Below are positions 32,755 through 55,631 of a DNA stretch of 64,000 nt, piece by piece. Positions within the stretch are counted from its first letter, which is position 1; each line of letters begins with the position of its first letter. The position numbers were made by a program, and so were the translations under genes. The notes beneath the pieces were generated by a model. It was not told the DNA's origin and did no database searches. It worked only from the letters and a program-made list of their open reading frames with translations. The DNA is taken from assembly GCA_017860615.1 (NCBI GenBank), contig JAGDMU010000007.1, positions 6,534-70,533 of the forward strand, given 5' to 3'. This DNA comes from Pseudomonadota bacterium (GTDB lineage Bacteria; Campylobacterota; Campylobacteria; Campylobacterales; Sulfurospirillaceae).

Positions 32755-32814
32755 TCGTCAAAGACAATTGGACTTCGTCAAAGACAATTGGACTTCGTCA
32801 AAGATAATTGGACT
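32755..32814 (+). repeat. Three tandem 20-bp transposase-binding sites at the tnsE-like-proximal end
   Basis: tcgtcaaagacaattggact x2 plus tcgtcaaagataattggact, no spacers. Confidence 0.9.
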
Positions 32815-32831: not shown

Positions 32832-34604
32832 ATGGATAAATTTAGCGATTTACTCCTCTTCGCTGATTTTTCCCAACAATACTCTGCTGAATTTGAACTA
32901 GGTTATCGATTTATCATTTACGTTATTGGTTCACCAAGGCGTACGCCTACAACTTCATACATTACAAGCCAATATCAAATTCCATTGTACATTCTTGCAG
33001 AATCATCTTCAAGTACAACCGAAAAATATAAGCTGTTAATTCATTATGTGCCTTTTGAATATATAGTAAGAATTTCAATAGGTGATGAAATCTTACCCAT
33101 GGGTAACATTCGCTATTTGGGTTCCTTATCTGATTTCAAATACACAAAAGATAAGAATGAAGGATTTTTAACAAAAAAAGCAGTCTCTATTTCAAAAGAA
33201 ACTATCAAAAATCCAATAATATGTACTTTATCAGAACTCATCACGAATTATGGCTTATTTAATAAAATACCGCAAGATCTATTAGATAGCAATGCAAAGG
33301 ACGAATGGTTTTATCTCTTCAAAACGGATGAAGGGTCTTTAGTTATTTCAGCAGTTGAGATTCTACGTCATTTTTATTTAGCCTCACCTGGTCCGTCATT
33401 GACTAACCATATTTTAGATCCAAAAGGCGTACAGAATTTATCACGTGGCATTACAACTGACAGAATGACGCGCAAAGGGAAGAAATACCCCTATTTTAAG
33501 ATTGATATCCATCCTTTCTCTCAAATGGTTGATATCAATAAAATTTTCTTCTTTAGCTGCTCAAGAAGAAACAAACAATACTTTTCAAGTATTGCTCATC
33601 ATTTTTTAAAAACACACAAACTTAACGCTCTCATACCAACATTGCGTACTCTTCATTTATCTGTAGATATATACAAACAAGGCGATTATTTTTTAATTAC
33701 AAAAATCCATGAAAGCAGTATTGCATCTCATATGCAAGACTGGATTGTTGATTATACCCACCCACAATCAAGACCTCATGTTATTAAACAAAAAGTTAAA
33801 CCACCTCAGATAGTTCAACGAGCTGATCCATCTAACGTGGTAAGTCATGTTCAGTATACAAACAAAAAAATCAAACCTAAAAAAATATCTGATAAAAGCC
33901 AATTTTTTGGTGAGGGAAAACTAGAAAACCCCAAATTTCCTCTGGGACCTACTTTTAAACATTTACCCAATGAAGAAGAACGAACAGTTACTGAGTCAAA
34001 TAAAATATCTAAAGACTTGGGAGATAGAGACATTGGACTAAGCGGTCGAGGCCTTAATAAAGACGGCCCTATTGCCGTAGAAACATATACTAAAAAAGAT
34101 AAAAGCCAGAAGAAAAAAGATGAAGCAGAGGAAGGCGAAGAAATTCAAAGCAAACAGACGTTATATGATGAAGAGATAAGCACTAAAATAATTGAAAAAA
34201 TAGCTCAAGAGTTTATAGCGCAAGGTTGCTCTGCTCACATACAATATAAAAGCGTTAAAAGACCCTATATCTCACAAAAAATCGTATACAAATCAATTAA
34301 ATATTATGTTGAAATTCTGATCCAAAAAGAAGAGCTACAGTTTGTTTACGTTGATATCTTAGCCAAACAATATACAGCGACTTCCGCAATTTATAATGAT
34401 AAAAAAGAAGTATTACTTATAAAACGCGATAAACAATTCAAAGATTACTACATCAAAAACTTGATTTATGATCAATTGGTAGAAGGCAACCATAAATGGG
34501 GCGCTAAATCACCTTATAAAAAGTTATTCACTTATTCAATGATCAAACATCGCCAAGATTTGAAATCATTTGTTGAATCTATTTTGGAGATTATGTCTCG
34601 CTAA
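32832..34604 (+). CDS. TnsE-like protein (590 aa, putative alternative target selector)
   Basis: Recalled Tn7 TnsE motifs match in order: ISAVEILRHFYL (IPQLELARSLFL), YFSSIAHH (YESIFRH), LHLSV...DYFLITKI (LHVKG...DYLVEEI), FVYVDI (FVLLEV), late W and H. Alignment is by eye only. Confidence 0.55.
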   Translation: MDKFSDLLLFADFSQQYSAEFELGYRFIIYVIGSPRRTPTTSYITSQYQIPLYILAESSSSTTEKYKLLIHYVPFEYIVRISIGDEILPMGNIRYLGSLSDFKYTKDKNEGFLTKKAVSISKETIKNPIICTLSELITNYGLFNKIPQDLLDSNAKDEWFYLFKTDEGSLVISAVEILRHFYLASPGPSLTNHILDPKGVQNLSRGITTDRMTRKGKKYPYFKIDIHPFSQMVDINKIFFFSCSRRNKQYFSSIAHHFLKTHKLNALIPTLRTLHLSVDIYKQGDYFLITKIHESSIASHMQDWIVDYTHPQSRPHVIKQKVKPPQIVQRADPSNVVSHVQYTNKKIKPKKISDKSQFFGEGKLENPKFPLGPTFKHLPNEEERTVTESNKISKDLGDRDIGLSGRGLNKDGPIAVETYTKKDKSQKKKDEAEEGEEIQSKQTLYDEEISTKIIEKIAQEFIAQGCSAHIQYKSVKRPYISQKIVYKSIKYYVEILIQKEELQFVYVDILAKQYTATSAIYNDKKEVLLIKRDKQFKDYYIKNLIYDQLVEGNHKWGAKSPYKKLFTYSMIKHRQDLKSFVESILEIMSR

Positions 34605-34620
34605 GAAACTGCCTTCTGTT

Positions 34621-34895
34621 TTCTCATTTAAAATATAAGAATTTGCACAAATCTTATATTTTGACCTTTTTTTTGGCATCAAAATATAAGAAATCACCAA
34701 AAAGTTATATTTTGATATAACGCTTTAGTATATTAAAATATCTTTTTTACCTTATAACTATGGATATGAAACTACCAAATTCCCAACTATTCTCAGTTTT
34801 CATATAAATGTTAAGAATATGCACAAAACTTATCATTTGACCTCTTTTTTGGTATCAAATGATAAGAAATCATCAAAATATTATCTTTTAATATA
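34621..34895. repeat. Two diverged ~99-bp direct repeats (period 176), each with two ~33-bp palindromes
   Basis: Copy 1 34621-34719, copy 2 34797-34895; half-sites aaaatataag/cttatatttt versus aaatg(a/t)taag/cttatcattt. Confidence 0.85.
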
Positions 34896-35057
34896 GCTTG
34901 GGGATAAAATATACGTATGAGAAAAGTATTATGAATAAAAGCTATTTTCCTATAGCACTTATCAAAACAATTTGAGAGATTCTACGTATATAGATATGTC
35001 ATAATTCCATACGTTAGGTTTACACGTTTGTTTCAAATTACATATTGAGGATGATAC

Positions 35058-35735
35058 ATGGCAGCGATTTATACAATAAATTATTATCAAACAACACCTC
35101 TAATATCGTCTCACATGCCATATGAAGCTTACGATAAAAGAAAAAAAATTAAACGACCTTGCACATTATGTGAATATGATGAAACTACTGCTGTTGTCAT
35201 ATGGAGCGACACTAGAAGGGAGGGTAAAGTCTTACTTCAAGACCTAGAATTTAAAGGAATTATCCCTCAAAATAGTGATATTCTGAAAATTGGGCTCATA
35301 ATTGATCCTATCCCATGTTGGAAATGCCATAAAATTTCTCATTCAATTTATGCAGTAGAAATAATTTATATGGACACTTATATACAACTGCATACACATG
35401 TTGAACCACAATTATTAGATAAGTTTGATCATACCATACTCAAGCAATATCAATTGGGAGAAGTGAAAGAACGATATAGCAAAACAATGCAACAAAGATA
35501 TTTATCAGAGGGTTGCTTCTATTGTGATGCACTTTTCGGTAAATTTTATCTTAGTGACTCTCGTCTGGAATATGAAATTACTCTAAGTTGGCCGGAAGCA
35601 TGTGATTATATTGAAATATCATATGAAGATTATTGCATGCTCAATCTGGGTCATTTTGTGGCATATAGACCAGATGAATTATTGCAATACCACAAATACA
35701 ATCACGAAGATGAAATTGACGAAGATATTTTTTAA
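35058..35735 (+). CDS. Hypothetical protein with three CxxC pairs (probable Zn-binding)
   Basis: CTLC, CWKC, CFYC; GAGG RBS. Confidence 0.7.
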   Translation: MAAIYTINYYQTTPLISSHMPYEAYDKRKKIKRPCTLCEYDETTAVVIWSDTRREGKVLLQDLEFKGIIPQNSDILKIGLIIDPIPCWKCHKISHSIYAVEIIYMDTYIQLHTHVEPQLLDKFDHTILKQYQLGEVKERYSKTMQQRYLSEGCFYCDALFGKFYLSDSRLEYEITLSWPEACDYIEISYEDYCMLNLGHFVAYRPDELLQYHKYNHEDEIDEDIF

Positions 35736-35743
35736 TGATATTG

Positions 35744-35938
35744 TCAAACTTTAATAAAAGACAGCCAATACGCCAAAGATATACTAGCAACGCCAGAAAG
35801 AATTAACTCCGTAATAAAGTGAATCAGATTATTGTTGCCTTTTTCTATCCTGACAGCCCAATAAATTTCATACAAATGATCACTGCAAGTGTCAGTGGTA
35901 AAAAGCGCGATGGTTTCTCCCTGCCACTCAAATTTCAT
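35744..35938 (-). CDS. Small protein with a C-terminal TM helix
   Basis: 64-aa ORF ending FITELILSGVASISLAYWLSFIKV. Confidence 0.5.
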   Translation of the reverse strand: MKFEWQGETIALFTTDTCSDHLYEIYWAVRIEKGNNNLIHFITELILSGVASISLAYWLSFIKV

Positions 35939-37294: not shown

Positions 37295-37478
37295 TTGACA
37301 TATCCTTATTATTCAGAGTAATATTTTATTACAATTCAAAAGATCATCTTATATAAGTCTTTTGTAATTCTATCATGTAGGAAGATAACTTATTTGTGTA
37401 TCTTCCTGCAAAATTTGAAAGATATTTGCGCTTACAATAAAGTTATAATGTCATACTTCAAAGTCACAAAGGTAATTT

Positions 37479-37769
37479 ATGAAAAGTATCATCATAAGCC
37501 TTCTGCTCTTGCTAACCCTACAGTTATTTGCCTCAGATGTTCAAAGTAACTTCGCCATTCAGCCAGACTCGCAAAATTGTGAATCGATAATAAAAGATGG
37601 GAATAAAGATTTACTTGTTCAAAGAGGTTGTTGTTCACATCATGGCGGAGTTTGCGGTTGCAAAAGTGGTCGAGTAACCTGCTGTGACGGTAGTTATAGT
37701 CCAAGCTGCACTTGTAAAGGCGGCGAAACTATTATTGATGAAGATGAAGGGTTTAAAATCAAGCTCTAA
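37479..37769 (+). CDS. Small secreted Cys-rich protein
   Basis: Signal peptide MKSIIISLLLLLTLQLFA; GCCSHHGGVCGC...CCDGSYSPSCTC. Confidence 0.75.
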   Translation: MKSIIISLLLLLTLQLFASDVQSNFAIQPDSQNCESIIKDGNKDLLVQRGCCSHHGGVCGCKSGRVTCCDGSYSPSCTCKGGETIIDEDEGFKIKL

Positions 37770-37907
37770 TAAATAAATTCTATTTACAATTTTATAAATA
37801 AAAACTATTTTAAATAAATTTTATTTATTTGCTTGAAAAATGGTTGTATCACCGACAAATCGCACTTTACTATATTCCCATTGCACTTTTAGAAACAATA
37901 TTTAAGA

Positions 37908-38971: not shown

Positions 38972-40981
38972 ATGAAGCTATTGTATATACATATTGAAGA
39001 AGATTACAAGCACATCAAAGCTGGCGGATATTATTTCGATAAAGAGTTTAATGTTATAAATTTCAACACTACACCTGGACAAAGGAAAATTACATTAGAA
39101 ACAAACCCAAATTATCATAGACCGTTTAATCAAAATATCAATAATATCTCTTGTATTGTTGGGAAAAACGGTGTTGGAAAAACTACGTTTTTTGAATTGA
39201 TTATAGCTCCATTACTATGGAGATTAGATGGACCTCTTTTAGAGAATAAAATCCATTTACTTTATTATGATGAAATCGAAAAAGAATTTTATATCCAATC
39301 TTATACAGGTCAAGCAAATAATTGGGGACTATATTTAGATGGCCATAAAATACATCTTTTCAAAAATAAAAAAAATAATAGTACGAAAATAAATGTAGAA
39401 TCTGGCTCTACGTATAGATCCGTTTTTCCTTATCAAATGAATATTATTTTTCATAGCCTTTCTCCCTTTGATAGAATTTATGATTTATTGAAACTACAAT
39501 TATCAGATGCTTCGTATGGTCAAATAGAACACTATCGAAAAAGATTGAAATACATTGGTACACGACAAATAGAAAACAATGAAACAATCTATGAGTATAT
39601 GACTTTGATAAATTTGATCTCAATATTACTTGATAATAACTCAAAAGAAATGTTTAGTAAGTTAGGGTATGAGTATGGGAATATCGAAATTAATATAGTG
39701 AATGAAGAAGATGAACTTACTATTAATATCCCTGAATTTACTTCATTTAAAGATGAATCAAAAAAAATGTTGGAAGTTTTTTTTACAGAAGAATCATATA
39801 TGGAATTAAAAGAAAAATTATCTTTTTATTTGATTGCAGATTCAATTAATGGAGATTTTTTCAAAGAATTATTACTTAAAAGCGTAAAAATAGATACACC
39901 AAAAAGATTTCTTAATTTTTTATCAATAATAGCTGAAGAAAACCAAAATACAATTTCTTTAGAGACTATTATGGAAGCGATTTATCAATATCTATTAAAT
40001 TTAAATTTTCCAGAACAGATTAAAGAATTATGTACCAGTGAAAATTATAAATTTTTGACAGAAATCTTTGAAAATAAAAAGGAATTATTAACCATTGATC
40101 AATTTAGTGATAGTGAATATTTAAAAGAAAGAGTGAATAGCCCTGAGTTTTTAAAGCTTTTAAAATTTATTAAAAAGCTAGCAATTAGGAACCTTATTAA
40201 TTTTAAAATGTATTTGTTAAAAAAAGGGGAATCTTTTGATTATTTTAGGTTAAGTTCGGGGGAAAAAACATTATTATCTTATTTTGCAAATATCCTTGGG
40301 AGAATAAGAGAATTAGATGACATTCAAGCCGAAAATGCTACTTACTCCTCTATACAAAATAAATCTTACTTAATACTTATCGATGAAGTAGAACTTCATT
40401 TACATCCTGAATGGCAGAGAAACTTTATTAAACAATTAAATGAATTTTTTACTTATTTTGATAAAAGTAAAAAATTTCAATTTGTTATTGCAAGTCATTC
40501 TCCTTTTATTGTAACTGATATATACGATGAAAACATTATTTATTTGGGAGAGAACAACCCTAACACCAAAACATTTGGTGGGAATATATTTGATATTTTC
40601 AAGGATGATTTTTATGTGAGTAATACCATAGGTTCTTTTAGTGAAGGGATTATTAAAGATTTATCAGAAATCATCTATATCTTATTTGCTATACAAAAAG
40701 CTTTAAATGAAGGTAACTTTTTTATACTCAGAGAATACTTAGATTTGATGTATGAAACTTCCGAAAGAGAGGAAGAAAATAGAAAATTATTAGAGGAGCT
40801 TGTAACATTTTTGCAAGTAAAGAATAATAGTAAGTTTTCTAAACTTTCTACAAATCGCTTTCTTCCTTTAAAGGGAGATTTTATGCATGAATTTAACAAA
40901 ATCAAAAATAATATTGGTGAAGAAGTTGTTAGAGAACATTTCGATAAAATGTTAAATTATATACGAGAATCACATGCTTAA
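38972..40981 (+). CDS. ABC/SMC-type AAA ATPase, PtuA-like
   Basis: Walker A GKNGVGKT, signature LSSGEK, Walker B LILIDEVELHLHPEWQ, SHSPF; overlaps the HNH gene. Confidence 0.85.
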   Translation: MKLLYIHIEEDYKHIKAGGYYFDKEFNVINFNTTPGQRKITLETNPNYHRPFNQNINNISCIVGKNGVGKTTFFELIIAPLLWRLDGPLLENKIHLLYYDEIEKEFYIQSYTGQANNWGLYLDGHKIHLFKNKKNNSTKINVESGSTYRSVFPYQMNIIFHSLSPFDRIYDLLKLQLSDASYGQIEHYRKRLKYIGTRQIENNETIYEYMTLINLISILLDNNSKEMFSKLGYEYGNIEINIVNEEDELTINIPEFTSFKDESKKMLEVFFTEESYMELKEKLSFYLIADSINGDFFKELLLKSVKIDTPKRFLNFLSIIAEENQNTISLETIMEAIYQYLLNLNFPEQIKELCTSENYKFLTEIFENKKELLTIDQFSDSEYLKERVNSPEFLKLLKFIKKLAIRNLINFKMYLLKKGESFDYFRLSSGEKTLLSYFANILGRIRELDDIQAENATYSSIQNKSYLILIDEVELHLHPEWQRNFIKQLNEFFTYFDKSKKFQFVIASHSPFIVTDIYDENIIYLGENNPNTKTFGGNIFDIFKDDFYVSNTIGSFSEGIIKDLSEIIYILFAIQKALNEGNFFILREYLDLMYETSEREEENRKLLEELVTFLQVKNNSKFSKLSTNRFLPLKGDFMHEFNKIKNNIGEEVVREHFDKMLNYIRESHA

Positions 40982-41957
40982 GATTAGTCAAACATCTCAA
41001 AATGCAATATTGCATTATTTACAAAAAAATGATTATTGCACAGATAAAAAGATAAATGAAGCAACCTTTGGATTTTTAAATATACCTAATAGAACAAAAT
41101 ACTTTTTAAAAGACTTGCCATTTGAAGAAAATTATAAAATTTCTCATAGTACCTTAATGTCTCCCTATCATAATAATGAGAACATAATAGAGGCTTTTTT
41201 TGATAAGTTGCAAAGAGTCTATGGAGTGGGTTCTCGTGATATTTTTTATAATACAGGAAAAGATGATGAAGTAGATAAAACTCTTGATACTAATGAAGCG
41301 CAAGTAAAAGTTATTAAACTTTTTTTATTAAAAAAATACTCCAATATGTATAATAATTTTAGAAAAAATTATGGAAAAAGAGTTATTGAAGAAACAGGTA
41401 ATAATATCTGCCCATACTGTTATCGAAGTTATATTAGTGTTATTGAAGCAGAAACAGGAAAAAAATCATTAACTCCTGATTTAGATCATTTTTATCCAAA
41501 ATCAAGATACCCATTTTTAGCAGTTACATTATCAAATTTAGTTCCTTCATGCCTTTTATGTAACGAACGAGCAAAAAATGATCAAGATTTTTACAAAAAT
41601 TCTATATATCCACCACAAAAATTTTTTGATGAAATTGAATTCGATTATGATGTGTATCTAAATAAGATTTACATAAAAAACTATAAACAATTGATTATTG
41701 ACCCTAAATATAAAATACATTTAGATACTTTTTTAATTCAAGAAACCTATGCAACACATACAGAAATTTTACAAAACATCATCAATAAACATAAAAAATA
41801 TAAACAATCTAAGATTCAAGATTTGGTAAAACACACTGTAGGATTATCTGGAACGTATGTCAAAAAGATAGTTTTTTATGAGTATGAGTATATGAATAAA
41901 AAAACAGAATTACTGTATAAACTCAAAAAAGATTTATATGAAAAGATAATTAAATAA
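40974..41957 (+). CDS. HNH endonuclease, PtuB-like (Septu-type pair)
   Basis: CPYC...DLDHFYPKSRYPFLAVTLSNLVPSCLLCN. Confidence 0.85.
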   Translation: MLKISQTSQNAILHYLQKNDYCTDKKINEATFGFLNIPNRTKYFLKDLPFEENYKISHSTLMSPYHNNENIIEAFFDKLQRVYGVGSRDIFYNTGKDDEVDKTLDTNEAQVKVIKLFLLKKYSNMYNNFRKNYGKRVIEETGNNICPYCYRSYISVIEAETGKKSLTPDLDHFYPKSRYPFLAVTLSNLVPSCLLCNERAKNDQDFYKNSIYPPQKFFDEIEFDYDVYLNKIYIKNYKQLIIDPKYKIHLDTFLIQETYATHTEILQNIINKHKKYKQSKIQDLVKHTVGLSGTYVKKIVFYEYEYMNKKTELLYKLKKDLYEKIIK

Positions 41958-41987: not shown

Positions 41988-42167
41988 GTATATAAATCCG
42001 TTGATATCACCAAAGGCAAATAAGGTTTAGAGTATGCCTTTGCCCTTAAACGTCAAATAGACACTATTGTTGAGTATTTAAAGAAACAAGCATTGCCTAT
42101 GAAGATTAGTGTTGAGAATGTGGCCAAAATGGTTATTAATCCGTTTGAATTAGTATATAAAGAATAA
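41988..42167 (+). pseudogene. Possible 3' gene remnant with an in-frame stop
   Basis: VYKSVDITKGK*GLEYAFALKRQIDTIVEYLKKQALPMKISVENVAKMVINPFELVYKE*; protein-like composition, no start codon. Confidence 0.35.
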
Positions 42168-42259: not shown

Positions 42260-43696
42260 TTAATCTGATGGGTTTTCAATCTGTTGAATAGCATCATACG
42301 CACGTCTATGACCTAATTTATCCGCTTTACGAAGATACTCTATAGCATTTTTGTTTGAGTCTTCCGTACGCAATAATTCAACCCCTAAATTAAAAGCAAT
42401 ACTTGCATCATTAGGATCCAATGTAAATGCTTTTTTTAGAGCACGTACAGCTTCATCATGGCGGCCTAGTTCTACCAAAGCGCATGATACGTGATACCAA
42501 CCAGAAGCAATATCGGGATACTCATCTATCAGTTTAGCAAAACATTGAAGTGCTTTATTATGTTCTCCAGCATATCCATACACAACCCCTTTTAGATGAA
42601 TTAATGCACCAGTATCTTGTTTTGTCTTTAAATTTTCGTCTATTTGAAACAAGGCATCACCATATTTTTTTTGCTGAACGAGTCGCTCTATCATATGCAT
42701 AAATTCAACTTCCGTCAACGATTTGTCCTGCTGTTCTTCTTGGATATGCAGTTTATTTTTTAACTTTGGTTTCGTTACCACGATATCGTAAGGGACTTTT
42801 TCTATTTTATTGGCACCTTGTATCTTGCGTATTTTAAACAACGCAACTTCATTAGGTACATGCGCTTCGACCAACTCAATGTAGTGCTTTATTCGTTCAT
42901 CTGGACATAACATGCCAAAGATTATTTCAGTAATATCTCCAGGCCATTCAAATAAGCCTCCAAATGGTTCTACATATCGCCATTCTTCCTCATAACTCCA
43001 ACATGTATGCTTTGTAGTTATTGCTTTCTGAAATGTTTTGTCTGAAAATGCAACTTCATATCCTGAAACATATAGTTTAAAGTTTTCATCAACTGCAAAA
43101 GTCATTTCTGTATTAAAACCATTTTTATCCGTTAATGGCAATTCATCAGAATATATAATGGGTAAAAAGTGTTTTTCATTAGAAAGTTTGCATTCACCAT
43201 GATTGGAAAATCCGATACATATCCCCGTGTGGCTATTTCCATAGTGCGCCCACATTAAAGGATGGTCCGGCTTACATGAAAGACTAAAAATTCCAACTGC
43301 ATTTAACTGACGATCTATATGTAAAAATAAATTTAATGGGTTAGATGGGTAATGTCCTGTTTTTTCCATAATAAACTTTGCATATAAATCATACGATTCA
43401 TCTAAATTAACATGTCCTTTTATCATATTTAATAGTTTTTGTATTTCTTCCAGAGAAAGCCCATAAAAATCTCCATTTGATTTTTTTGCTTTCACCGCCA
43501 TATAGACAAACCCAGATACGGCAGCTTTTTTGAGTTTAAGTATTTGTTCTTCTATCCAAGTGTGACCAATATCCTGCAATGAGCATTCAAATGGATCATT
43601 CAAGCCTTCGGCTGTAGACAAATACACTTTTCCTGTCGTAAATATATCCTCGGTATATTTTGAATCTGAACGATACTTATAAAAAACTCGATTCAT
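42260..43696 (-). CDS. DUF2971-like domain fused to C-terminal TPR repeats
   Basis: YKYR, LNDPFE, LMWAHYGNSHTGICIGF, TK...WSYEEEWR; TPR-like repeats after about residue 330. Confidence 0.8.
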   Translation of the reverse strand: MNRVFYKYRSDSKYTEDIFTTGKVYLSTAEGLNDPFECSLQDIGHTWIEEQILKLKKAAVSGFVYMAVKAKKSNGDFYGLSLEEIQKLLNMIKGHVNLDESYDLYAKFIMEKTGHYPSNPLNLFLHIDRQLNAVGIFSLSCKPDHPLMWAHYGNSHTGICIGFSNHGECKLSNEKHFLPIIYSDELPLTDKNGFNTEMTFAVDENFKLYVSGYEVAFSDKTFQKAITTKHTCWSYEEEWRYVEPFGGLFEWPGDITEIIFGMLCPDERIKHYIELVEAHVPNEVALFKIRKIQGANKIEKVPYDIVVTKPKLKNKLHIQEEQQDKSLTEVEFMHMIERLVQQKKYGDALFQIDENLKTKQDTGALIHLKGVVYGYAGEHNKALQCFAKLIDEYPDIASGWYHVSCALVELGRHDEAVRALKKAFTLDPNDASIAFNLGVELLRTEDSNKNAIEYLRKADKLGHRRAYDAIQQIENPSD

Positions 43697-48212: not shown

Positions 48213-49310
48213 TTATTTCAAATACCGATACCCACTCATCCACTGATAACCAGTAATCTCTGCAAATCTTTTTGCAGTTAATTTTTCATTTTTAGACAAA
48301 TACGCCTTAATACTCTCCACCTCTCCTTTACTAAGTGGACGCATAACTTCGACACACTCCTCCAAGGGTTTTAAAAACCAAAAAGGTAAATCTCTACAGT
48401 TATTTTTTCTTTCGTATTTTTCTAGAATTCGTGGCTTATTTGTTATTTTACGTCGTTTAAAAAAGTATTGAAACTGATACGGCCAATTTTGAAAAAGCTC
48501 CACAGATCTTTTGATGATTCTAAACATCTGTCTTGTAGTAAATTGTTCAGGGAAAATTTGATGCCTCTTCAAATCATTTTGAACTATTTTCTTCCAATAA
48601 CTAGCATGACTCATATGTCTCGTAAATATCCTCAGCACATAAAAATAACTCATTGAATAGTACCATCTACCATTCAATATAAAATAGCCTCGTTTTGCAA
48701 TACTCAAAAGCCTTCTAATAGCTTTTAGCCCTTCTGAATATTGTGGAATCATAATAGGTGTTCTATCTAATAAATTTGCTCCACATTTAAAACAAAACTC
48801 CATACCTTGATCTTCTAGTGAATAAACCGATGCAAGCGGAGATCCACACTTTGGACACTGTGACTCAAGAAAACAACAATGTTTTGTACAAGCATTCACA
48901 AAATAAAGCTTCCACTCTTTTTTATAATAAGCATTTTCTTTTAGACATAAAGGACAATAACACAGCCCTCTCTCGCGTTGATGATATTTTATATCATGCG
49001 ATAAAGTTACTATCCAGCGCTGCTTTCCTTTGCCATTAATAGTTTCTTGGATATACCCTTCATAGCTTTTAAGGCGCATTTGTTGTATTCGCTCAATGCT
49101 CACATCCGTACACTCGGACAAAGTTTGCCAAAAGCTTTCAGGGTACTCATAAATATCAATATCTTTGTTGAAGTAACTTTTACCTGCCCAATGTTGCGAA
49201 AAGAGTCCTACAACGGTTGTAAAGTTAGCCTTTGCAATACGTGTTAGCCACGAAGAAAGAAGCTCGCCCTCAAATGGTTCGACAGTAAACAACCATTTTT
49301 GAGCTGACAT
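48213..49310 (-). CDS. tniQ: TniQ/TnsD-family target selector
   Basis: PFEGELLSSWLTRIAKAN, CPLCL, CTKH..FLESQCPKC, CFKC; about 200-aa C-terminal extension. Confidence 0.9.
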   Translation of the reverse strand: MSAQKWLFTVEPFEGELLSSWLTRIAKANFTTVVGLFSQHWAGKSYFNKDIDIYEYPESFWQTLSECTDVSIERIQQMRLKSYEGYIQETINGKGKQRWIVTLSHDIKYHQRERGLCYCPLCLKENAYYKKEWKLYFVNACTKHCCFLESQCPKCGSPLASVYSLEDQGMEFCFKCGANLLDRTPIMIPQYSEGLKAIRRLLSIAKRGYFILNGRWYYSMSYFYVLRIFTRHMSHASYWKKIVQNDLKRHQIFPEQFTTRQMFRIIKRSVELFQNWPYQFQYFFKRRKITNKPRILEKYERKNNCRDLPFWFLKPLEECVEVMRPLSKGEVESIKAYLSKNEKLTAKRFAEITGYQWMSGYRYLK

Positions 49311-49312
49311 AG

Positions 49313-50203
49313 CTATTTCCTCCGATCACTTGGTCTTTCGTATGGAATTGACTCAAGTATTTCTAAATCAATCGATTCTTTATTATTTTGAATCGCATAA
49401 ATTGTAGATTTTGTAAGAATTTTGGCAACTTCTCCAATTAAACCTTCACTCATCCAATGGATCTTTTGTACAAGAGATTTACGATGTAAACGAGAGGGTT
49501 CACGAAGTGGCAACGTCTTCTCAAAACTCATAAGAAGCCTTGCAAAATCTTCATTGAGTTCCCACGTATCAAGCCGCAAGGTATCAAAACGCCTCGCAAT
49601 CTGTGTTTCAGAAGAGAGTGTGCGTTGCACCTCTGGCACGCCTGCTACTACAACACTTACTTTTGCATTGGTACCAAGTTGTTTGAGCGCTGAAAGAAAT
49701 TTTGTTTGTTCTCTAAGACCACCATGATAGATATCCTGCATTTCATCAATAATAATCATCTTTGTACCCAAAGCACTAAGAATATTTTCTACCTGCTTTT
49801 CTTTACGTGAAGATGATTCTGTCGTTAGGTATGGTACATTCAAAGCATCCAAGATTTTTTCATAAAGAATATTCGAAGAAGGTGCAATGGGTGCTGAAAA
49901 ATAGACTATTGGAATATGATTTTGGCCTCCCTTTAAAAAAGAGGGATGTTGTTCCATAAAATAATTGAGTATCGTTGTTTTACCATTGTTGCTATCCCCA
50001 ACAATAGTGAAATGTTGCATTCGATTATTCGCTTTTTCCAGGAAAGCGATTTCAAGTTCATTGAGAATACTAAGTGCTTGAGGATATGGTATCCACACTT
50101 TTTCTTGAGCTTTTTGAATCCGCTCAATCGGTGTTTTCAATAAAACAGCTCGAACACCTTCTAAAAGTGATGCTTGATGATCTAATATCTCTTTTTCACT
50201 CAT
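49313..50203 (-). CDS. tnsC: TnsC/TniB AAA+ ATPase
   Basis: GDSNNGKT, MIIIDEMQD, QIARRF, SEGLIGEV. Confidence 0.9.
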   Translation of the reverse strand: MSEKEILDHQASLLEGVRAVLLKTPIERIQKAQEKVWIPYPQALSILNELEIAFLEKANNRMQHFTIVGDSNNGKTTILNYFMEQHPSFLKGGQNHIPIVYFSAPIAPSSNILYEKILDALNVPYLTTESSSRKEKQVENILSALGTKMIIIDEMQDIYHGGLREQTKFLSALKQLGTNAKVSVVVAGVPEVQRTLSSETQIARRFDTLRLDTWELNEDFARLLMSFEKTLPLREPSRLHRKSLVQKIHWMSEGLIGEVAKILTKSTIYAIQNNKESIDLEILESIPYERPSDRRK

Positions 50204-52098
50204 TTGTCACCTCTTTCAGATATTCCCTCAAACGGTTTGATGTTTGAAAACATATCTTCATCACCTTCTTCAAAAGTCTCTTCGTTCACACTAGGAACTA
50301 TTGACTTCGCTGGCTTAGATTCATTAATGACCGGTGATGCTTTGAGTTTAATGGCTCTTTCATTTTTTTTACGAGTCTGAAGAGTTTTTTGGGCAGCATC
50401 TTTTTCAAGGTTTTTCATCCTCTCGATTGAAAGGAATACATCATGTTCACTATGTTCTCTACGCTCATCGGCATCCAATTTCTTCTTAACTGCACAATAT
50501 TCCCAAAGCGAGACGCCTGTCGCTTTTGCTCTACGATCTTTAAGTGGGATGCTGTGATACTGCTTTGTATCAGGATCATAGAAATAAATGAGACTGATAT
50601 CTCGTGGATCTCTTCGTATGAGATACGTTTTAGAGCTTTTTCCATGTTTATCTAAAGAGCGTGGTATAAAGCTATTGAGCACATCAGAGTAATACGTAAT
50701 CCCATCTAAAACAATTCCGTAGCGCTGGATGGTTCTTTCATCATAGGGGAGAAGATTTAATCGAAGTCTTGCAGCATCTTTTTTCTCAGCTCTCATTATC
50801 CTTCCACGAGGTGGTGTATTTGGTCCACCAAGCATTCCTTCTAGATAGCGGGCTATTGGACTTTTTCCCAAAGCTGAGTGAACTTTATGATGGTACACTT
50901 CTGTAATTAAAATAGTAAGCCACTTTTCAAATTCTTCAAGCGTCATATTGGCATGTTTGACAGAATCGTAAGTTCCTTTTTGGGTGATATTTGAAAAAGT
51001 GGTTCCTTTGAGTGTGTGAATATCTTCATTGAGAGTTCTGACCAAACGCTCAATATGCCCTCCAAAATTCGGACGACCAACAGGGCGCCATACTGCTGTC
51101 ATCTTGTACTCTTTGCAGACCATTTCAATATCTTTACCTCTAAACTCTTTTGCATTATCCATATGAATCATGCTAGGGAAACCTTCAAGTGGCCATTTCG
51201 TTTGAATGCCATATTTTACGAGAATTTCATCTTTTGAGAGAATTGCATTGGCCAAGCATTGCCCCGTCCCAAAATAACCTGGTGAATCGAATGAAATGTA
51301 AAAACCTGCGATCATCCGACTGTAAACATCAATGGCTAGTGTAATCCAAGGACGACCAATTACTTCTCGATGCTTACTATCCACCAATTCAATATCTACT
51401 CGTGTATGATCTATTTGTATAACTTCCAAAGGATAATTACCATCAGGAAACTCCCCTTTTATCGGATAAAGAGGATGAACTGATTTTTTACCTTCGCGTT
51501 TTTTCATGCTAATGCGCTTATCTAACGCTTCCACTCGCCTTCCTATAGTTGCTAAACTAGGAGGTTCAATATTCGCATTTCTGCATCTAAGCACAATATC
51601 TTCATAGGTTTTTTGAACGGTTGGTTTTTGTTCAGAGAGATAATACTCATCCAAGGCACTGGCAATAATAGCTTCAAGTTCTTCAGCTAAACGCGATTTA
51701 CCTTTACCACCAGTAGTTCCTTCATAAATTAAAGAAGTCAAACGCTGTGTTTTTTCATAAGCCTTCAACCAATTATAGATACTACTTGAAGCGACATTGC
51801 ATTCTTTAGCCCTTTGATTGACTTTTTCTCTTGTTCTATTTTCCAAAAGTGGTTCAATGATTTTAAAACGTTCTTCGGCTTTTTTTAAATGATGTTCTGG
51901 TACTTGCGATAGGTCTTCATAGACAGTATCTTGCCTTTCTTCTTCAAGCTCACTAGAGAGGTCTTGAATAAAAAGTGTTTCGATTTTTCCCGTTGCGAGA
52001 TTTTTTGCTAAAACTTTATCAATATCCAATAATTTACGAATTTCATACTCTTCATTCTGGTAAAAGACATGTGTTCCGCTTCGTATATCAAGGCTCAT
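50200..52098 (-). CDS. tnsB: TnsB DDE transposase
   Basis: IQIDHT (D), HMDNAKEF (D), GHIERL (E); GRPWITLAIDVYSR; Mu-transposase-like C-terminus. Confidence 0.93.
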   Translation of the reverse strand: MSLDIRSGTHVFYQNEEYEIRKLLDIDKVLAKNLATGKIETLFIQDLSSELEEERQDTVYEDLSQVPEHHLKKAEERFKIIEPLLENRTREKVNQRAKECNVASSSIYNWLKAYEKTQRLTSLIYEGTTGGKGKSRLAEELEAIIASALDEYYLSEQKPTVQKTYEDIVLRCRNANIEPPSLATIGRRVEALDKRISMKKREGKKSVHPLYPIKGEFPDGNYPLEVIQIDHTRVDIELVDSKHREVIGRPWITLAIDVYSRMIAGFYISFDSPGYFGTGQCLANAILSKDEILVKYGIQTKWPLEGFPSMIHMDNAKEFRGKDIEMVCKEYKMTAVWRPVGRPNFGGHIERLVRTLNEDIHTLKGTTFSNITQKGTYDSVKHANMTLEEFEKWLTILITEVYHHKVHSALGKSPIARYLEGMLGGPNTPPRGRIMRAEKKDAARLRLNLLPYDERTIQRYGIVLDGITYYSDVLNSFIPRSLDKHGKSSKTYLIRRDPRDISLIYFYDPDTKQYHSIPLKDRRAKATGVSLWEYCAVKKKLDADERREHSEHDVFLSIERMKNLEKDAAQKTLQTRKKNERAIKLKASPVINESKPAKSIVPSVNEETFEEGDEDMFSNIKPFEGISERGDK

Positions 52099-52732
52099 AG
52101 ATACTCTCCAAGATAGTGTATAACGACAATTTTACATTCAAGTCTACTTTGATTTTCTTATATCGTACAAGTGCCCAAAGTGTTGGCACAATGTCTATTT
52201 GTTCAGAAGGGTCTGGGGTGATTTTTGCGAGTAATTCATTTAAGCGGTTAAAAGGAGTGAAAGCAGTATAAATTTTTTCATACTGCTTCGGGTCAATGTA
52301 TTCGTAATCTAACAAAAATTTGATATTCCAAAACAAGTCTTCATTTTGCAAATAAGGGCATCTTTCGGTGAAAATACGAAAAGTCCAATTCTTTTTTTGT
52401 TTGCAAAATTCTATTGCTGCACGAAATTTATGTTCAAACTCGTCAAATTTCTCCAGTAACTCACTGCGATATTTTACTTCACCTAAAATGTAAGAACCAT
52501 CATTTAGTGTGAGTAAGAAATCAGGAGTATAGGAGCGATCTTTGCCTTGAAACTCATATTCAATAGTTAATGGCTGATCATCAAAAGCTTTGATTTGAGG
52601 TAAATAATCAAAGAGGAAGTAAAAATCTCGTTCAAGCTTAGATTCAAAAGAGACAAAACCATGCAAAGCTTTATTGGAGCCAATTTTGCCAGTGATATTG
52701 CGATAGTTTTTAGGGATTTTGCGTTTTCCCAT
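52088..52732 (-). CDS. tnsA: TnsA endonuclease
   Basis: FESKLERD, QPLTIEY, YTPDFL, GEVK. Confidence 0.9.
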   Translation of the reverse strand: MGKRKIPKNYRNITGKIGSNKALHGFVSFESKLERDFYFLFDYLPQIKAFDDQPLTIEYEFQGKDRSYTPDFLLTLNDGSYILGEVKYRSELLEKFDEFEHKFRAAIEFCKQKKNWTFRIFTERCPYLQNEDLFWNIKFLLDYEYIDPKQYEKIYTAFTPFNRLNELLAKITPDPSEQIDIVPTLWALVRYKKIKVDLNVKLSLYTILESIYEP

Positions 52733-52783: not shown

Positions 52784-53518
52784 TTATACCCAATATTGTT
52801 TAATGTCTTCAATTGGATCACTCGCTTTAGTGCGGTGCACCATTGCATGGCAATTTGGACAAAGAGGCACCAAATCTTGCGTCGGTTTTACACTGTAATT
52901 TTTCTTTATTTTATTTAATGGAATAATGTGATGAACATGAATAAATCCATCACCAAGTTCTCCATATTTCTGCGTAAAATCAAATTTGCAAATAAAACAT
53001 TTACACCCATAATGCCTTATACAAGCATCTCTAGCTGCTTTATTTCTTTCATACGCATTAACTTGTGTCTGTATCATACTTCCTTCTGGGTAACCATCCT
53101 CAGGAACACGGTTTTCATCTTCTGGATAGGTTATATTTTGCGATAGTACCCGTTGAACTTCAATTTGTTTCTCTAAAGTATCAAGATAGGTAATCCGACG
53201 ACTTAAAATATCAGTTGACAACCTTTCATTTGAATAAATAATTTCAATATTTGTCATTTTATAACCATGTGGATACTGTATATTCTTCAAGTCTTGCTTA
53301 TATTTACCAGTATAGACAGCTTTTGCCACAATATAACCATCAAAAGAATAATAAACAGTTGACCCTTTATAAAATTTTTCTGGGTTGCGTTTACGAAAAT
53401 CAAAAAAGAAATTATGCCTCTCCTTAGGCAAGGTTTCATAAAAATATTCACGTGCACCATGAATATCTAGCTCTCCAAATGCATCTACATTTTTTCCCAA
53501 TCTAAATAATAAATCCAT
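52784..53518 (-). CDS. McrA-like HNH endonuclease with an uncharacterised N-terminal domain
   Basis: EG...YERNKAARDAC...CFICKFDF...IHVHH...LCPNCHAMVH. Confidence 0.85.
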   Translation of the reverse strand: MDLLFRLGKNVDAFGELDIHGAREYFYETLPKERHNFFFDFRKRNPEKFYKGSTVYYSFDGYIVAKAVYTGKYKQDLKNIQYPHGYKMTNIEIIYSNERLSTDILSRRITYLDTLEKQIEVQRVLSQNITYPEDENRVPEDGYPEGSMIQTQVNAYERNKAARDACIRHYGCKCFICKFDFTQKYGELGDGFIHVHHIIPLNKIKKNYSVKPTQDLVPLCPNCHAMVHRTKASDPIEDIKQYWV

Positions 53519-54123: not shown

Positions 54124-54256
54124 AATCCAAGTATCTTTAAAATTTTTGGAGGTTAGTCCAATTGTCTTTGAATAAAGTCCAAGTATCTTTGTCACAAAAC
54201 TATAGTAAATACTATATTTTTATGCTATTTGGTCTAATTGTCTTTGAAAAATTACA
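54124..54256 (-). repeat. tnsA-proximal transposon end with four transposase-binding sites
   Basis: Sites at 54124-54140, 54155-54171, 54176-54192 and 54231-54247, reverse complements of tcaaaga(c/t)a(a/c)ttggact; terminal CA at 54255-54256. Confidence 0.88.
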
Positions 54257-54261
54257 ACGTA
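54257..54261 (+). repeat. Target-site duplication ACGTA, right copy
   Basis: ttaca|ACGTAtaaaa. Confidence 0.92.
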
Positions 54262-55631
54262 TAAAATCAGCTCTTTCAAGCATCAACTTCCAATTTCCTG
54301 CCCAAAAAATAACAATAAACCTTTCACCTTCGGATCTCAAAAAAGAGGGAAGCCACTTTGATTTGATCATCGCTCTTCTCATTGCTATCCAAAAAGAGCG
54401 TTTTACCTGTAACGATTTTTTTATCTTTGGCGAGCTTGGGTTGGATGGCAAAGTCAAGAAAACCAATGCCATTTTTCCTATTATTCTCTCTCTTGCAGCA
54501 CACATGCCAAACCTTCGTGTTTTGATTCCAACAGAACTACTCTCAAAAGTACAACAAATTCCCAATATTGAAGCATATGGTGTTGAAACACTGCATGAGG
54601 CTCTACTCTTTTTTAAAGAAAAACGCTTTAATACAGAAACACCTTCAGATAAGCAGATTTTTTGTGAAAATGCTTTAGAAATTGAAGGTAAACACTATTT
54701 TTATAGCACTCAGTTTCCACTGGACTTTAGCGATGTTTTAGGACAACACCGAGCCAAACGCGCTATGCTCATCGCTGCTGCTGGTATGCACAACCTTTTG
54801 ATGGAAGGAAGTCCAGGATGCGGCAAAAGCATGAGCATCAAACGTCTTCGCTACATCTTGCCTCCTCAAAGCATCGAAGAGATACTCGAATCCAACGCCT
54901 ACCAATCACTTCAAGAAGAGGACGTTGAACTAAGCCCTCTTAGACCTTTTAGGTCACCCCATCACACCTCTTCTCGCCCGTCCATCTTTGGTGGAGGCAG
55001 TTCGCAAAGTAGAGCAGGTGAAATTGCCCTCGCCCATAATGGCGTTCTGTTTTTCGACGAATTTCCCAATTTTTCTAAAACTGTTTTAGAGAGCTTAAGA
55101 GAACCACTTGAAGATCATCGAGTCCTCATCTCACGGGTCAATACGAAAGTAAGTTATGCGACCAAATTTCTGTTTGCAGCAGCGCAAAATCCTTGTCCAT
55201 GTGGCAATCTTTTTAGCCAGAGCCATGAATGCCGCTGTAGCGAAGTAGAAATCAATCGTTATAAAAACCGTATTTCCGAGCCGATTATGGACAGAATTGA
55301 TCTGTACATTCAGATGAGTGAAGAACATTCTAAAGAGCAAGGTCTTAGCTCAAAAGAGATGTTTGAGCAAGTGCTAAGAGCCTTTGTGATGCAAAAAAAG
55401 CGTGGTCAAAATGAACTTAATGGCAAGCTGGACGAACATAATACAATGCGCTTTTGTACATTGGAAACAAAAGCAAGCGAGAGCTTAGAGATAGCGCAGA
55501 GTCGTTTTGGACTGAGTCAGAGAAGTATCCATAAAGTACTTCGCATCGCACGTTCTATCGCCGATTTGGCGCAGAGTGAACAGATCTTACAAGAACACCT
55601 TCTTGAAGCCTTAAGCTTCCGTAAGCGTTAG
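54257..55631 (+). pseudogene. comM: comM 3' portion
   Basis: KITINLSPSDLKKEGSHFDL, GELGLDG, GSPGCGKS, FRSPHHTSS, LFFDEF, AAQNPCPCG. Confidence 0.93.

Follow-up and report, generated by a model that had tools for sequence, protein, structure and literature searches.

Duplicated four-arm palindromic units at the backbone–cargo junction of a comM-inserted Tn7-like transposon in Sulfurospirillum

Hairpin repeats of the REP/BIME or Correia type act as weak terminators or insulators at the 3′ ends of transcripts, and long palindromes are recombinogenic. Templated correction within quasi-palindromes and conversion between arms are established mutational behaviours of inverted repeats. For Tn7-like elements, we know of no dedicated mechanism of cargo turnover. 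Here we describe palindromic DNA placed exactly on the joint between the backbone and the cargo of such an element, within a 64,000-nucleotide stretch of a Sulfurospirillum genome (the window; coordinates count from its first letter unless a contig is named).

The low-G+C island of the window is a Tn7-like transposon splitting comM, the element spanning ~32749–54257. Its TnsB-type end repeats (TCGTCAAAGACAATTGGACT) lie at 32755–32814 (three copies) and, inverted, at 54153–54262, and tnsA, tnsB, tnsC and tniQ occupy 48213–52732 on the minus strand. Two palindromic units lie in the 453-bp gap between ORF590 and ORF225, with the following features.

32832–34604, plus strand: ORF590, tnsE-like gene of 590 residues at the left end of the element; its 3′ end adjoins unit 1
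34596–34985, plus strand: insertion block of 390 bp, relative to the empty-site relatives L081 and L083
34614–34719, plus strand: unit copy 1, four AT-type half-sites (AAAATATAAG/C); the best-formed copy
34630–34662, no strand assigned: palindrome 1 of copy 1, AAAATATAAGAAT - TTGCACA - AATCTTATATTTT, a 13-7-13 layout; 14-nt arms, 93% complementary
34667–34674, plus strand: T8 tract of copy 1, between its subunits
34678–34716, no strand assigned: palindrome 2 of copy 1, ATCAAAATATAA - 15 nt (GAAATCACCAAAAAG) - TTATATTTTGAT; 12-nt arms, 100% complementary
34790–34895, plus strand: unit copy 2, half-sites s1–s3 of TG type and s4 of AG type; 86% identical to the G041 unit
34806–34838, no strand assigned: palindrome 1 of copy 2, AAATGTTAAGAAT - ATGCACA - AAACTTATCATTT; s1 has one uncompensated T
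34855–34892, no strand assigned: palindrome 2 of copy 2, TCAAATGATAAG ... ATTATCTTTTAAT; arm match poor, TG versus AG type
34965–34985, plus strand: diverged second copy of the final ~21 nt of the tnsE-like gene, AAACAATTTGAGAGATTCTAC, versus AAACAATTTTGGAGATTATGA in L081; right insertion joint
35058–35735, plus strand: ORF225, Cys-rich, without family match; ~60 bp after ORF590 in the empty-site relatives

The cargo at 38972–41957 and 42260–43696 comprises a Septu-like pair—a PtuA-like ATPase and a PtuB-like HNH protein, with PDC-M62A and PDC-M62B as best PADLOC models—and a DUF2971-TPR protein that matches PDC-S31. A 244-residue HNH-domain protein (52784–53518, minus strand) sits between tnsA and the transposon end, an odd position for cargo.

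The two units are direct repeats of 106 nt each, 80% identical and offset by 176 bp. Each holds four half-sites of 13–15 bp (s1–s4), ordered forward, reverse, forward, reverse and sharing the core motif AAA[A/T][T/G]ATAAG; the half-site motif in full, (A/G)TCAAA[A/T][T/G]ATAAGAA, is present in eight copies over both units. The central arms of copy 1 are cttatattttga (34653–34664) and tcaaaatataag (34679–34690), enclosing a 14-nt loop, and those of copy 2 are cttatcatttga (34829–34840) and tcaaatgataag (34855–34866). Half-sites are spaced 22–28 bp centre to centre, and palindrome centres lie 51 bp (~5 helical turns) apart. The symmetry is nested: a ~50-bp subunit, in which two arms enclose an asymmetric core, occurs twice in tandem per unit, its two cores, TGCACAAA and TCACCAAAA, aligning in direct orientation, and the whole unit is itself an inverted repeat with 35-nt arms (77% complementary). 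Shuffles contain the string AAAWKATAAG 2.2 ± 1.4 times; the window has 10 matches, five of them inside 34630–34866 (237 bp). The duplicated four-arm palindrome is real and far above chance, in a region that is non-coding and highly symmetric. A first-pass annotation of this DNA had already described the duplicated four-half-site unit, and its sequence, coordinates, central arms and 14-nt loop are all as it gave them. It also read each outer palindrome as 13-7-13; palindrome 1 has this layout (TTGCACA or ATGCACA core), and palindrome 2 of copy 1 reads 12-15-12 (34678–34716).

The window matches L081 and L083 through 34595 and again from 34986, so 34596–34985 is extra DNA. These empty sites run from ...TTTTGGAGATTATG directly into AGTATATAGATATGTCAT..., and reach an ORF225 homologue ~60 bp on. 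The 390-bp block contains the end codons of ORF590, both units, a 70-bp spacer and a 90-bp tail; that it is an insertion missing in the closest relatives had escaped the first-pass annotation. ORF590 takes its final two codons and stop (TCT CGC TAA) from the block, which should caution annotators of this tnsE-like gene that its end codons come from inserted DNA. The relatives of ORF590 at 76–85% identity, five proteins in public assemblies, have no unit beside the gene, two of these relatives being exact empty sites. L078, L079, L080 and L082 instead carry an Nmad2-domain gene 22–23 bp after the tnsE-like gene, again without a unit. This gene (PF18753; L078 2078–2755 and L082 1891–2544, 225 residues in one and 217 in the other) is spaced as if it formed one operon with the tnsE-like gene, and is unrelated to ORF225 of the window. 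The C terminus of ORF590 (34587–34604) reads ..ILEIMSR before the stop, with ..ILEIMSI in the empty-site relatives and ..ILDKLRSM in the others; such varied tnsE-like C termini place the backbone–cargo break inside or just past the last codons in every relative. At the right joint, the 34965–34985 repeat is nearer to the L081 allele than to the left copy in the window (15/17 identical, p ~0.009 versus shuffles). This joint looks like mosaic recombination between two alleles, and not like a transposition footprint.

Searches for the unit elsewhere recovered few copies. The 2.79-Mb host genome holds no further half-site pairs, and BLAST of 61 family genomes found the unit beyond the host only in G041, another Sulfurospirillum. 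A sequence-only covariance model of the unit, run over 401 Campylobacterales genomes, gave no additional copy, its best weak match (G026) falling inside a response-regulator gene. Exact-pattern scans of GTDB species genomes and JGI metagenomes returned the G041 element again and nothing else, and that of IMG/VR returned no unit, these pattern scans demanding CTTAT in s2 so that L084-like variants would escape; BLAST against plasmids and phages likewise found no unit. The further copies thus number two, a complete one in G041 and a partial one in L084, a Logan metagenome contig with an ORF590 homologue. A dispersed repeat or MITE was rejected because the searches of genome, family and order gave no other copies, and a plasmid or phage origin for want of any match.

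The one unit of G041 matches copy 2 at 86% identity; it begins 15 nt past the stop of ORF603 (603 residues) at the left end of the G041 element and sits between convergent genes. That element, also present as one JGI metagenome contig, is a separate comM Tn7-like transposon with its own tnsABC-tniQ, a TnsB 33% identical to that of the host element and a comM insertion point ~740 bp further in. The L084 unit is copy-1-like, lies 96 nt after ORF527 (an unrelated gene of 527 residues) and is truncated by the contig end. That contig stops within the unit (L084 4742–4808), and a broken assembly at that point would be consistent with the sample holding several copies of the unit. ORF590, ORF603 and ORF527 share no similarity with one another, and neither do the compared flanks of the unit copies, whose boundaries are sharp. 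Homologues of ORF603 (85–91% identity) and of ORF527 are without the unit, and those of ORF590 have none beside the gene; the unit is accessory because close relatives of all three genes lack it. It is thus a discrete accessory module that moves independently of neighbouring genes. The absence of an adjoining unit from relatives of all three also led us to reject a 3′ tag of one gene family, and the spacer and tail show no significant similarity to the ORF603 or ORF527 regions, from either of which they might have been left over.

Half-site positions 7–8 form a variable dinucleotide with three states. AT is found in every copy 1 arm and in s4 of G041, TG in s1–s3 of copy 2 and s1–s2 of G041, and AG, a one-step intermediate linking the two, in s4 of copy 2 and s3 of G041. 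The arms can pair as s1:s2 with s3:s4 or as s1:s4 with s2:s3, and either scheme is ~85% paired over the four copies. Double-sided changes are seen in only 2–3 pairs, all at this same dinucleotide, in a covariation sample of four copies (one partial) that has no statistical power; those in s1:s2 are common to copy 2 and G041, and the whole set amounts to one or two events. RNAalifold returned an unfavourable covariation term (+1.11), with the s1:s2 hairpin alone common to all copies. Arms have also decayed without compensation: L084 s2 (CTTAT to ACTAT), G041 s3, and s1 and s4 of copy 2. Unit identity between the elements (86%) is about that of neighbouring relic DNA (84%); being no better conserved than adjacent decaying DNA, the unit gives no sign of selection by conservation alone. 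The first-pass annotation had proposed compensatory substitutions and, from them, symmetry under selection. The first proposal stands in part, AT to TG being matched in the paired arms of copy 2 but in only one or two events. The second is not supported, given so few events, the RNAalifold term, the uncompensated decay and the similar identity of relic DNA; covariation, which the annotation had proposed to look for among homologues, is absent on balance over the four copies. A pristine copy beside several degraded ones is more what a neutral or selfish repeat would show than what a conserved site would. Recurrent changes at positions 7–8 can reflect templated quasi-palindrome correction or arm conversion, or a change in the specificity of a binder.

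Folding as RNA also differs among copies. Copy 1 forms one long nested hairpin (−23.1 kcal/mol; z = −5.9 on the plus strand and −3.9 on the minus strand), copy 2 a central hairpin only (z = −2.7) and G041 three small hairpins (z = −1.1). Hairpin energies span −8.7 to −2.9 kcal/mol; that of palindrome 1 weakens from −8.7 in copy 1 to −3.6 in copy 2, where palindrome 2 gives −3.5. The good fold of copy 1 on both strands, together with a sigma-70-like promoter match upstream of copy 2 (TTGATA-16-TAAAAT, 34712–34739), is what a small ncRNA gene or other structured RNA could offer in its favour. We regard such a gene, one of the candidates of the first-pass annotation, as very unlikely: Rfam gave only a sub-threshold chance match (MIR1444, 20 bits versus a gathering score of 80, E = 3.8), minimum-free-energy structures differ among copies, covariation is absent on balance, and neither copy 2 nor G041 keeps the promoter match, such matches occurring at chance level in the region.

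The unit lies downstream of a same-strand gene, in the same orientation, in three of three contexts, and its T-run is on the sense strand only. The T-rich run is kept in all four copies, as T8, TCT6, TCT7 and TTGT5. A selected 3′-end RNA element—an intrinsic terminator, an insulator or an mRNA stabiliser, ending the tnsE-like transcript and protecting the cargo from read-through—would suit this constant orientation, as well as a start 10–15 nt past the stop of the end-proximal gene in two backbones (96 nt past ORF527), the convergent genes around the G041 unit, and a conserved sense-strand T-run following the sole structure shared by all copies. We consider it unlikely because its AU-rich stems are weak (−3.6 to −8.7 kcal/mol) and end 4 nt before the T-run, a terminator scan of the region returned 0 sites, the second palindrome is left without a role, and close relatives with the ORF590–ORF225 pair manage without the unit. 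Scans at or below chance likewise led us to reject a promoter or terminator.

Comparing the host element with that of G041 (C4:163176–179710) reveals four collinear islands of shared DNA with different genes between them.

34790–34895: the unit, 86% identical to G041
35754–35911: 84% identical to G041
37476–37832: 92% identical to G041
41997–42148: 84% identical to G041

Identities of 84–92% despite a TnsB at 33% argue for recent cargo exchange between deeply diverged backbones, and the shared islands point to frequent recombination among co-resident or successive comM insertions. The 35754–35911 island corresponds to a 63-residue membrane-protein gene, intact in G041 and reduced here to a frameshifted relic; the relic reading frame is ORF64 (35744–35938, minus strand), and the intact protein has two membrane helices. 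L082 has a 63-residue ORF at the place matching ORF64, of which only the C-terminal half reads the same. The best-conserved island (92% at the DNA level) contains ORF96 (37479–37769, plus strand), a small secreted Cys-rich protein with a signal peptide and without family match.

A tyrosine-recombinase core site, lox/FRT- or pdif-module-like and used by a host or foreign enzyme to swap cargo modules, would give the unit a part in such exchange. Palindrome 1 has the 13-7-13 layout and asymmetric core of such a site. The unit always joins unrelated flanks, exactly at the backbone–cargo junction in two elements, and the G041 unit looks chimeric, being copy-2-like on its left and copy-1-like at the last four informative sites (Fisher p ~0.015, before correction for breakpoint choice); this look could equally come from retained ancestral states. 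Its prospects are nonetheless slim. Palindrome 2 has a 13–15-nt spacer, longer than a core site allows, cargo modules are not enclosed by a unit at each end, most related elements lack the unit altogether, and neither complete carrier element encodes a recombinase. In the host element none of the six PF00589 matches of the genome falls within C27:39282–60790, the nearest (C27:74951–75433) lying outside it, ~4.4 kb beyond the right end of the window; profile matches for PF00589 and PF00239 thus bear out the first-pass annotation, which had seen no recombinase in the element. That nearest match is a tyrosine integrase, probably part of a separate mobile element at ~59–64 kb of the window.

The only recombinase evidently common to the host and G041 genomes is XerH, which the first-pass annotation had named as a possible partner. 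The difH consensus is ATTGAAAA-N6-TTTTCAAA, with a 6-bp centre (PMC3325230, PMC2731167). The host difH (G000 C16:10347) reads ATTGAAAACTGTAATTTTCAAAG and is unlike the unit arms. A likely xerH lies at C16:34042–34560, ~24 kb from difH, and the host appears to use a single-recombinase XerH/difH system. We rejected a host Xer site, the unit having arms of the AAAATATAAGAAT type and spacers of 7 and 13–15 nt versus difH arms about a 6-bp centre.

The ~100-bp unit, with its two dimer-type palindromes and the A/T tract between them, may resemble two-subsite res sites, as used by Sin and the beta recombinase. Each copy carries two palindromes that would be candidate subsites, its sequence pointing to no particular spacers or crossover dinucleotide. 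A res-type site served by a serine resolvase or invertase, put forward in the first-pass annotation as a res-like multi-site, is nevertheless next to negligible as an explanation: PF00239 has 0 matches in the host genome (99.97% complete) and none in the contig region of the G041 element.

Eight copies of a 13–15-bp motif at fixed spacing, with palindrome centres 51 bp apart, would also make a double-stranded DNA array of binding sites (operator, centromere-like or oriT-like), read by a trans-acting protein whose gene lies elsewhere than in the element, with AT and TG arms differing in specificity. The asymmetric cores and the T-tract are conserved and several arms have changed at two motif positions, as such an array might. 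We find it doubtful. The carriers share no DNA-binding protein: neither the Xis-like HTH protein, which the first-pass annotation had listed as a partner, nor ORF225 has a homologue in the G041 genome, the other complete carrier, and a cargo-encoded partner was rejected on that basis. Pfam, NCBIfam and PADLOC made no DNA-binding or recombinase call on ORF225 or ORF297. The host genome has no other such site, arms have decayed in G041, L084 and copy 2, relatives with the same neighbouring genes do without the array, and the promoter scan is at chance level. A relic of a Tn7 end was rejected too, since the half-sites alternate in orientation and bear no relation to the TnsB repeats (TCGTCAAAGACAATTGGACT).

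Nothing that we found shows the unit to be a recombinase site or a structure kept by selection. The reading that we favour, tentatively, is an accessory hairpin-prone palindromic module of ~97–106 bp from a variable pool of comM Tn7-like cargo in Sulfurospirillum, whose symmetry would stem largely from duplication. On this reading it belongs neither to the transposon backbone nor to the regulatory region proper to any gene. The unit entered the element within the 390-bp mosaic insertion at the backbone–cargo junction. Its symmetry would be mostly inherited, from nested duplication of one half-site, and now and then repaired by hairpin-templated (quasi-palindrome) correction or inter-arm conversion, which would account for recurrent change at one pair of positions across several arms; purifying selection for a dedicated protein partner is the alternative to such repair. 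The unit has no orientation-specific features other than the s1:s2 hairpin, the sense-strand T-run and its position in 3′ untranslated regions, behind the upstream gene; from these, weak termination or insulation is the most, and the only cis activity, that seems likely. The recombinogenic nature of palindromes would explain the novel joints at the unit edges.

Several observations sit less easily with an accessory module of this kind. It has no target-site duplication and no clean MITE-like terminal repeats, and its right joint is a mosaic scar. Copies are very few, and the module has no known mobilising enzyme. The cores (TTGCACA and ATCA[C/T]CAAAA) and the T-run are conserved at least as well as the arms, which fits sequence-specific recognition too, just as the focus of change on half-site positions 7–8 fits a switch in the specificity of a binding protein. 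The empty terminator scan, the weak hairpins (−3.6 to −8.7 kcal/mol) and the 4-nt gap before the T-run count against even a modest role in termination.

There is a small chance that the unit is instead a cis-acting site that travels: a hotspot of recombination or a core site, used by a host-encoded or trans-supplied enzyme, or an orphan oriT- or centromere-like site. Cargo would pass through it from one deeply diverged Tn7-like transposon to another at a different comM position, with AT, AG and TG as co-evolving specificities. If it is true that the unit hosts exchange, its importance is greater. Under the favoured reading of an accessory palindromic module, the unit is of modest importance, marking how Tn7-like cargo regions are rebuilt.

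How does this locus compare with described systems? Like an integron attC, the unit sits at the 3′ end of an ORF in fixed orientation, and its folded form has an outer stem, an internal unpaired spacer, an inner stem and a loop. It differs in having no RYYYAAC or GTTRRRY boxes, the arms being ATATAAG and GTTATAT with a G-G clash, and no adjoining IntI, integrase in the element or cassette array; an attC was rejected, the R boxes being absent. F sopC-type centromere or operator arrays are tandem repeats that each hold a palindrome, with a period of about whole helical turns, as here; the unit differs in that no partition or regulator gene is associated with it, and its palindromes number only four and decay in some copies. 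A Rho-independent terminator has a stable G+C-containing stem directly before its U-tract; the s1:s2 stems of the unit are weak and stop 4 nt short of the T-run.

The lox/FRT and dif/pdif sites (arms of ~11–14 bp about a 6–8-bp overlap) resemble palindrome 1, with its 13-7-13 layout and asymmetric core, and the pdif sites of Acinetobacter plasmids lie, like the units, at module boundaries. The spacers here are 7 and 13–15 nt rather than 6–8 in both palindromes, the arms are unlike the host difH and the elements encode no cognate recombinase; unlike pdif modules, those of the cargo do not have sites on both flanks.

The extragenic palindromic repeats are the remaining comparison. Unlike REP, BIME, REPIN and MITE families, the unit is not dispersed, having two copies in the genome and occurring only in Tn7-like cargo; its subunits are direct repeats, whereas the REPs of a REPIN are inverted, and no target duplication is visible. 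Compared with a MITE, only s1 and s4 serve as inverted ends (9–11 bp), the flanks of the four copies are without duplication, and what repeats over 21 nt at the right joint is a diverged copy of an allele rather than a clean duplication. With the REP/BIME, REPIN and Correia-type repeats the unit nevertheless shares a ~100-bp non-coding module built of nested imperfect palindromes, able to form one long or two short hairpins about a central A/T tract, and set, with sharp boundaries, just downstream of genes in unrelated contexts.
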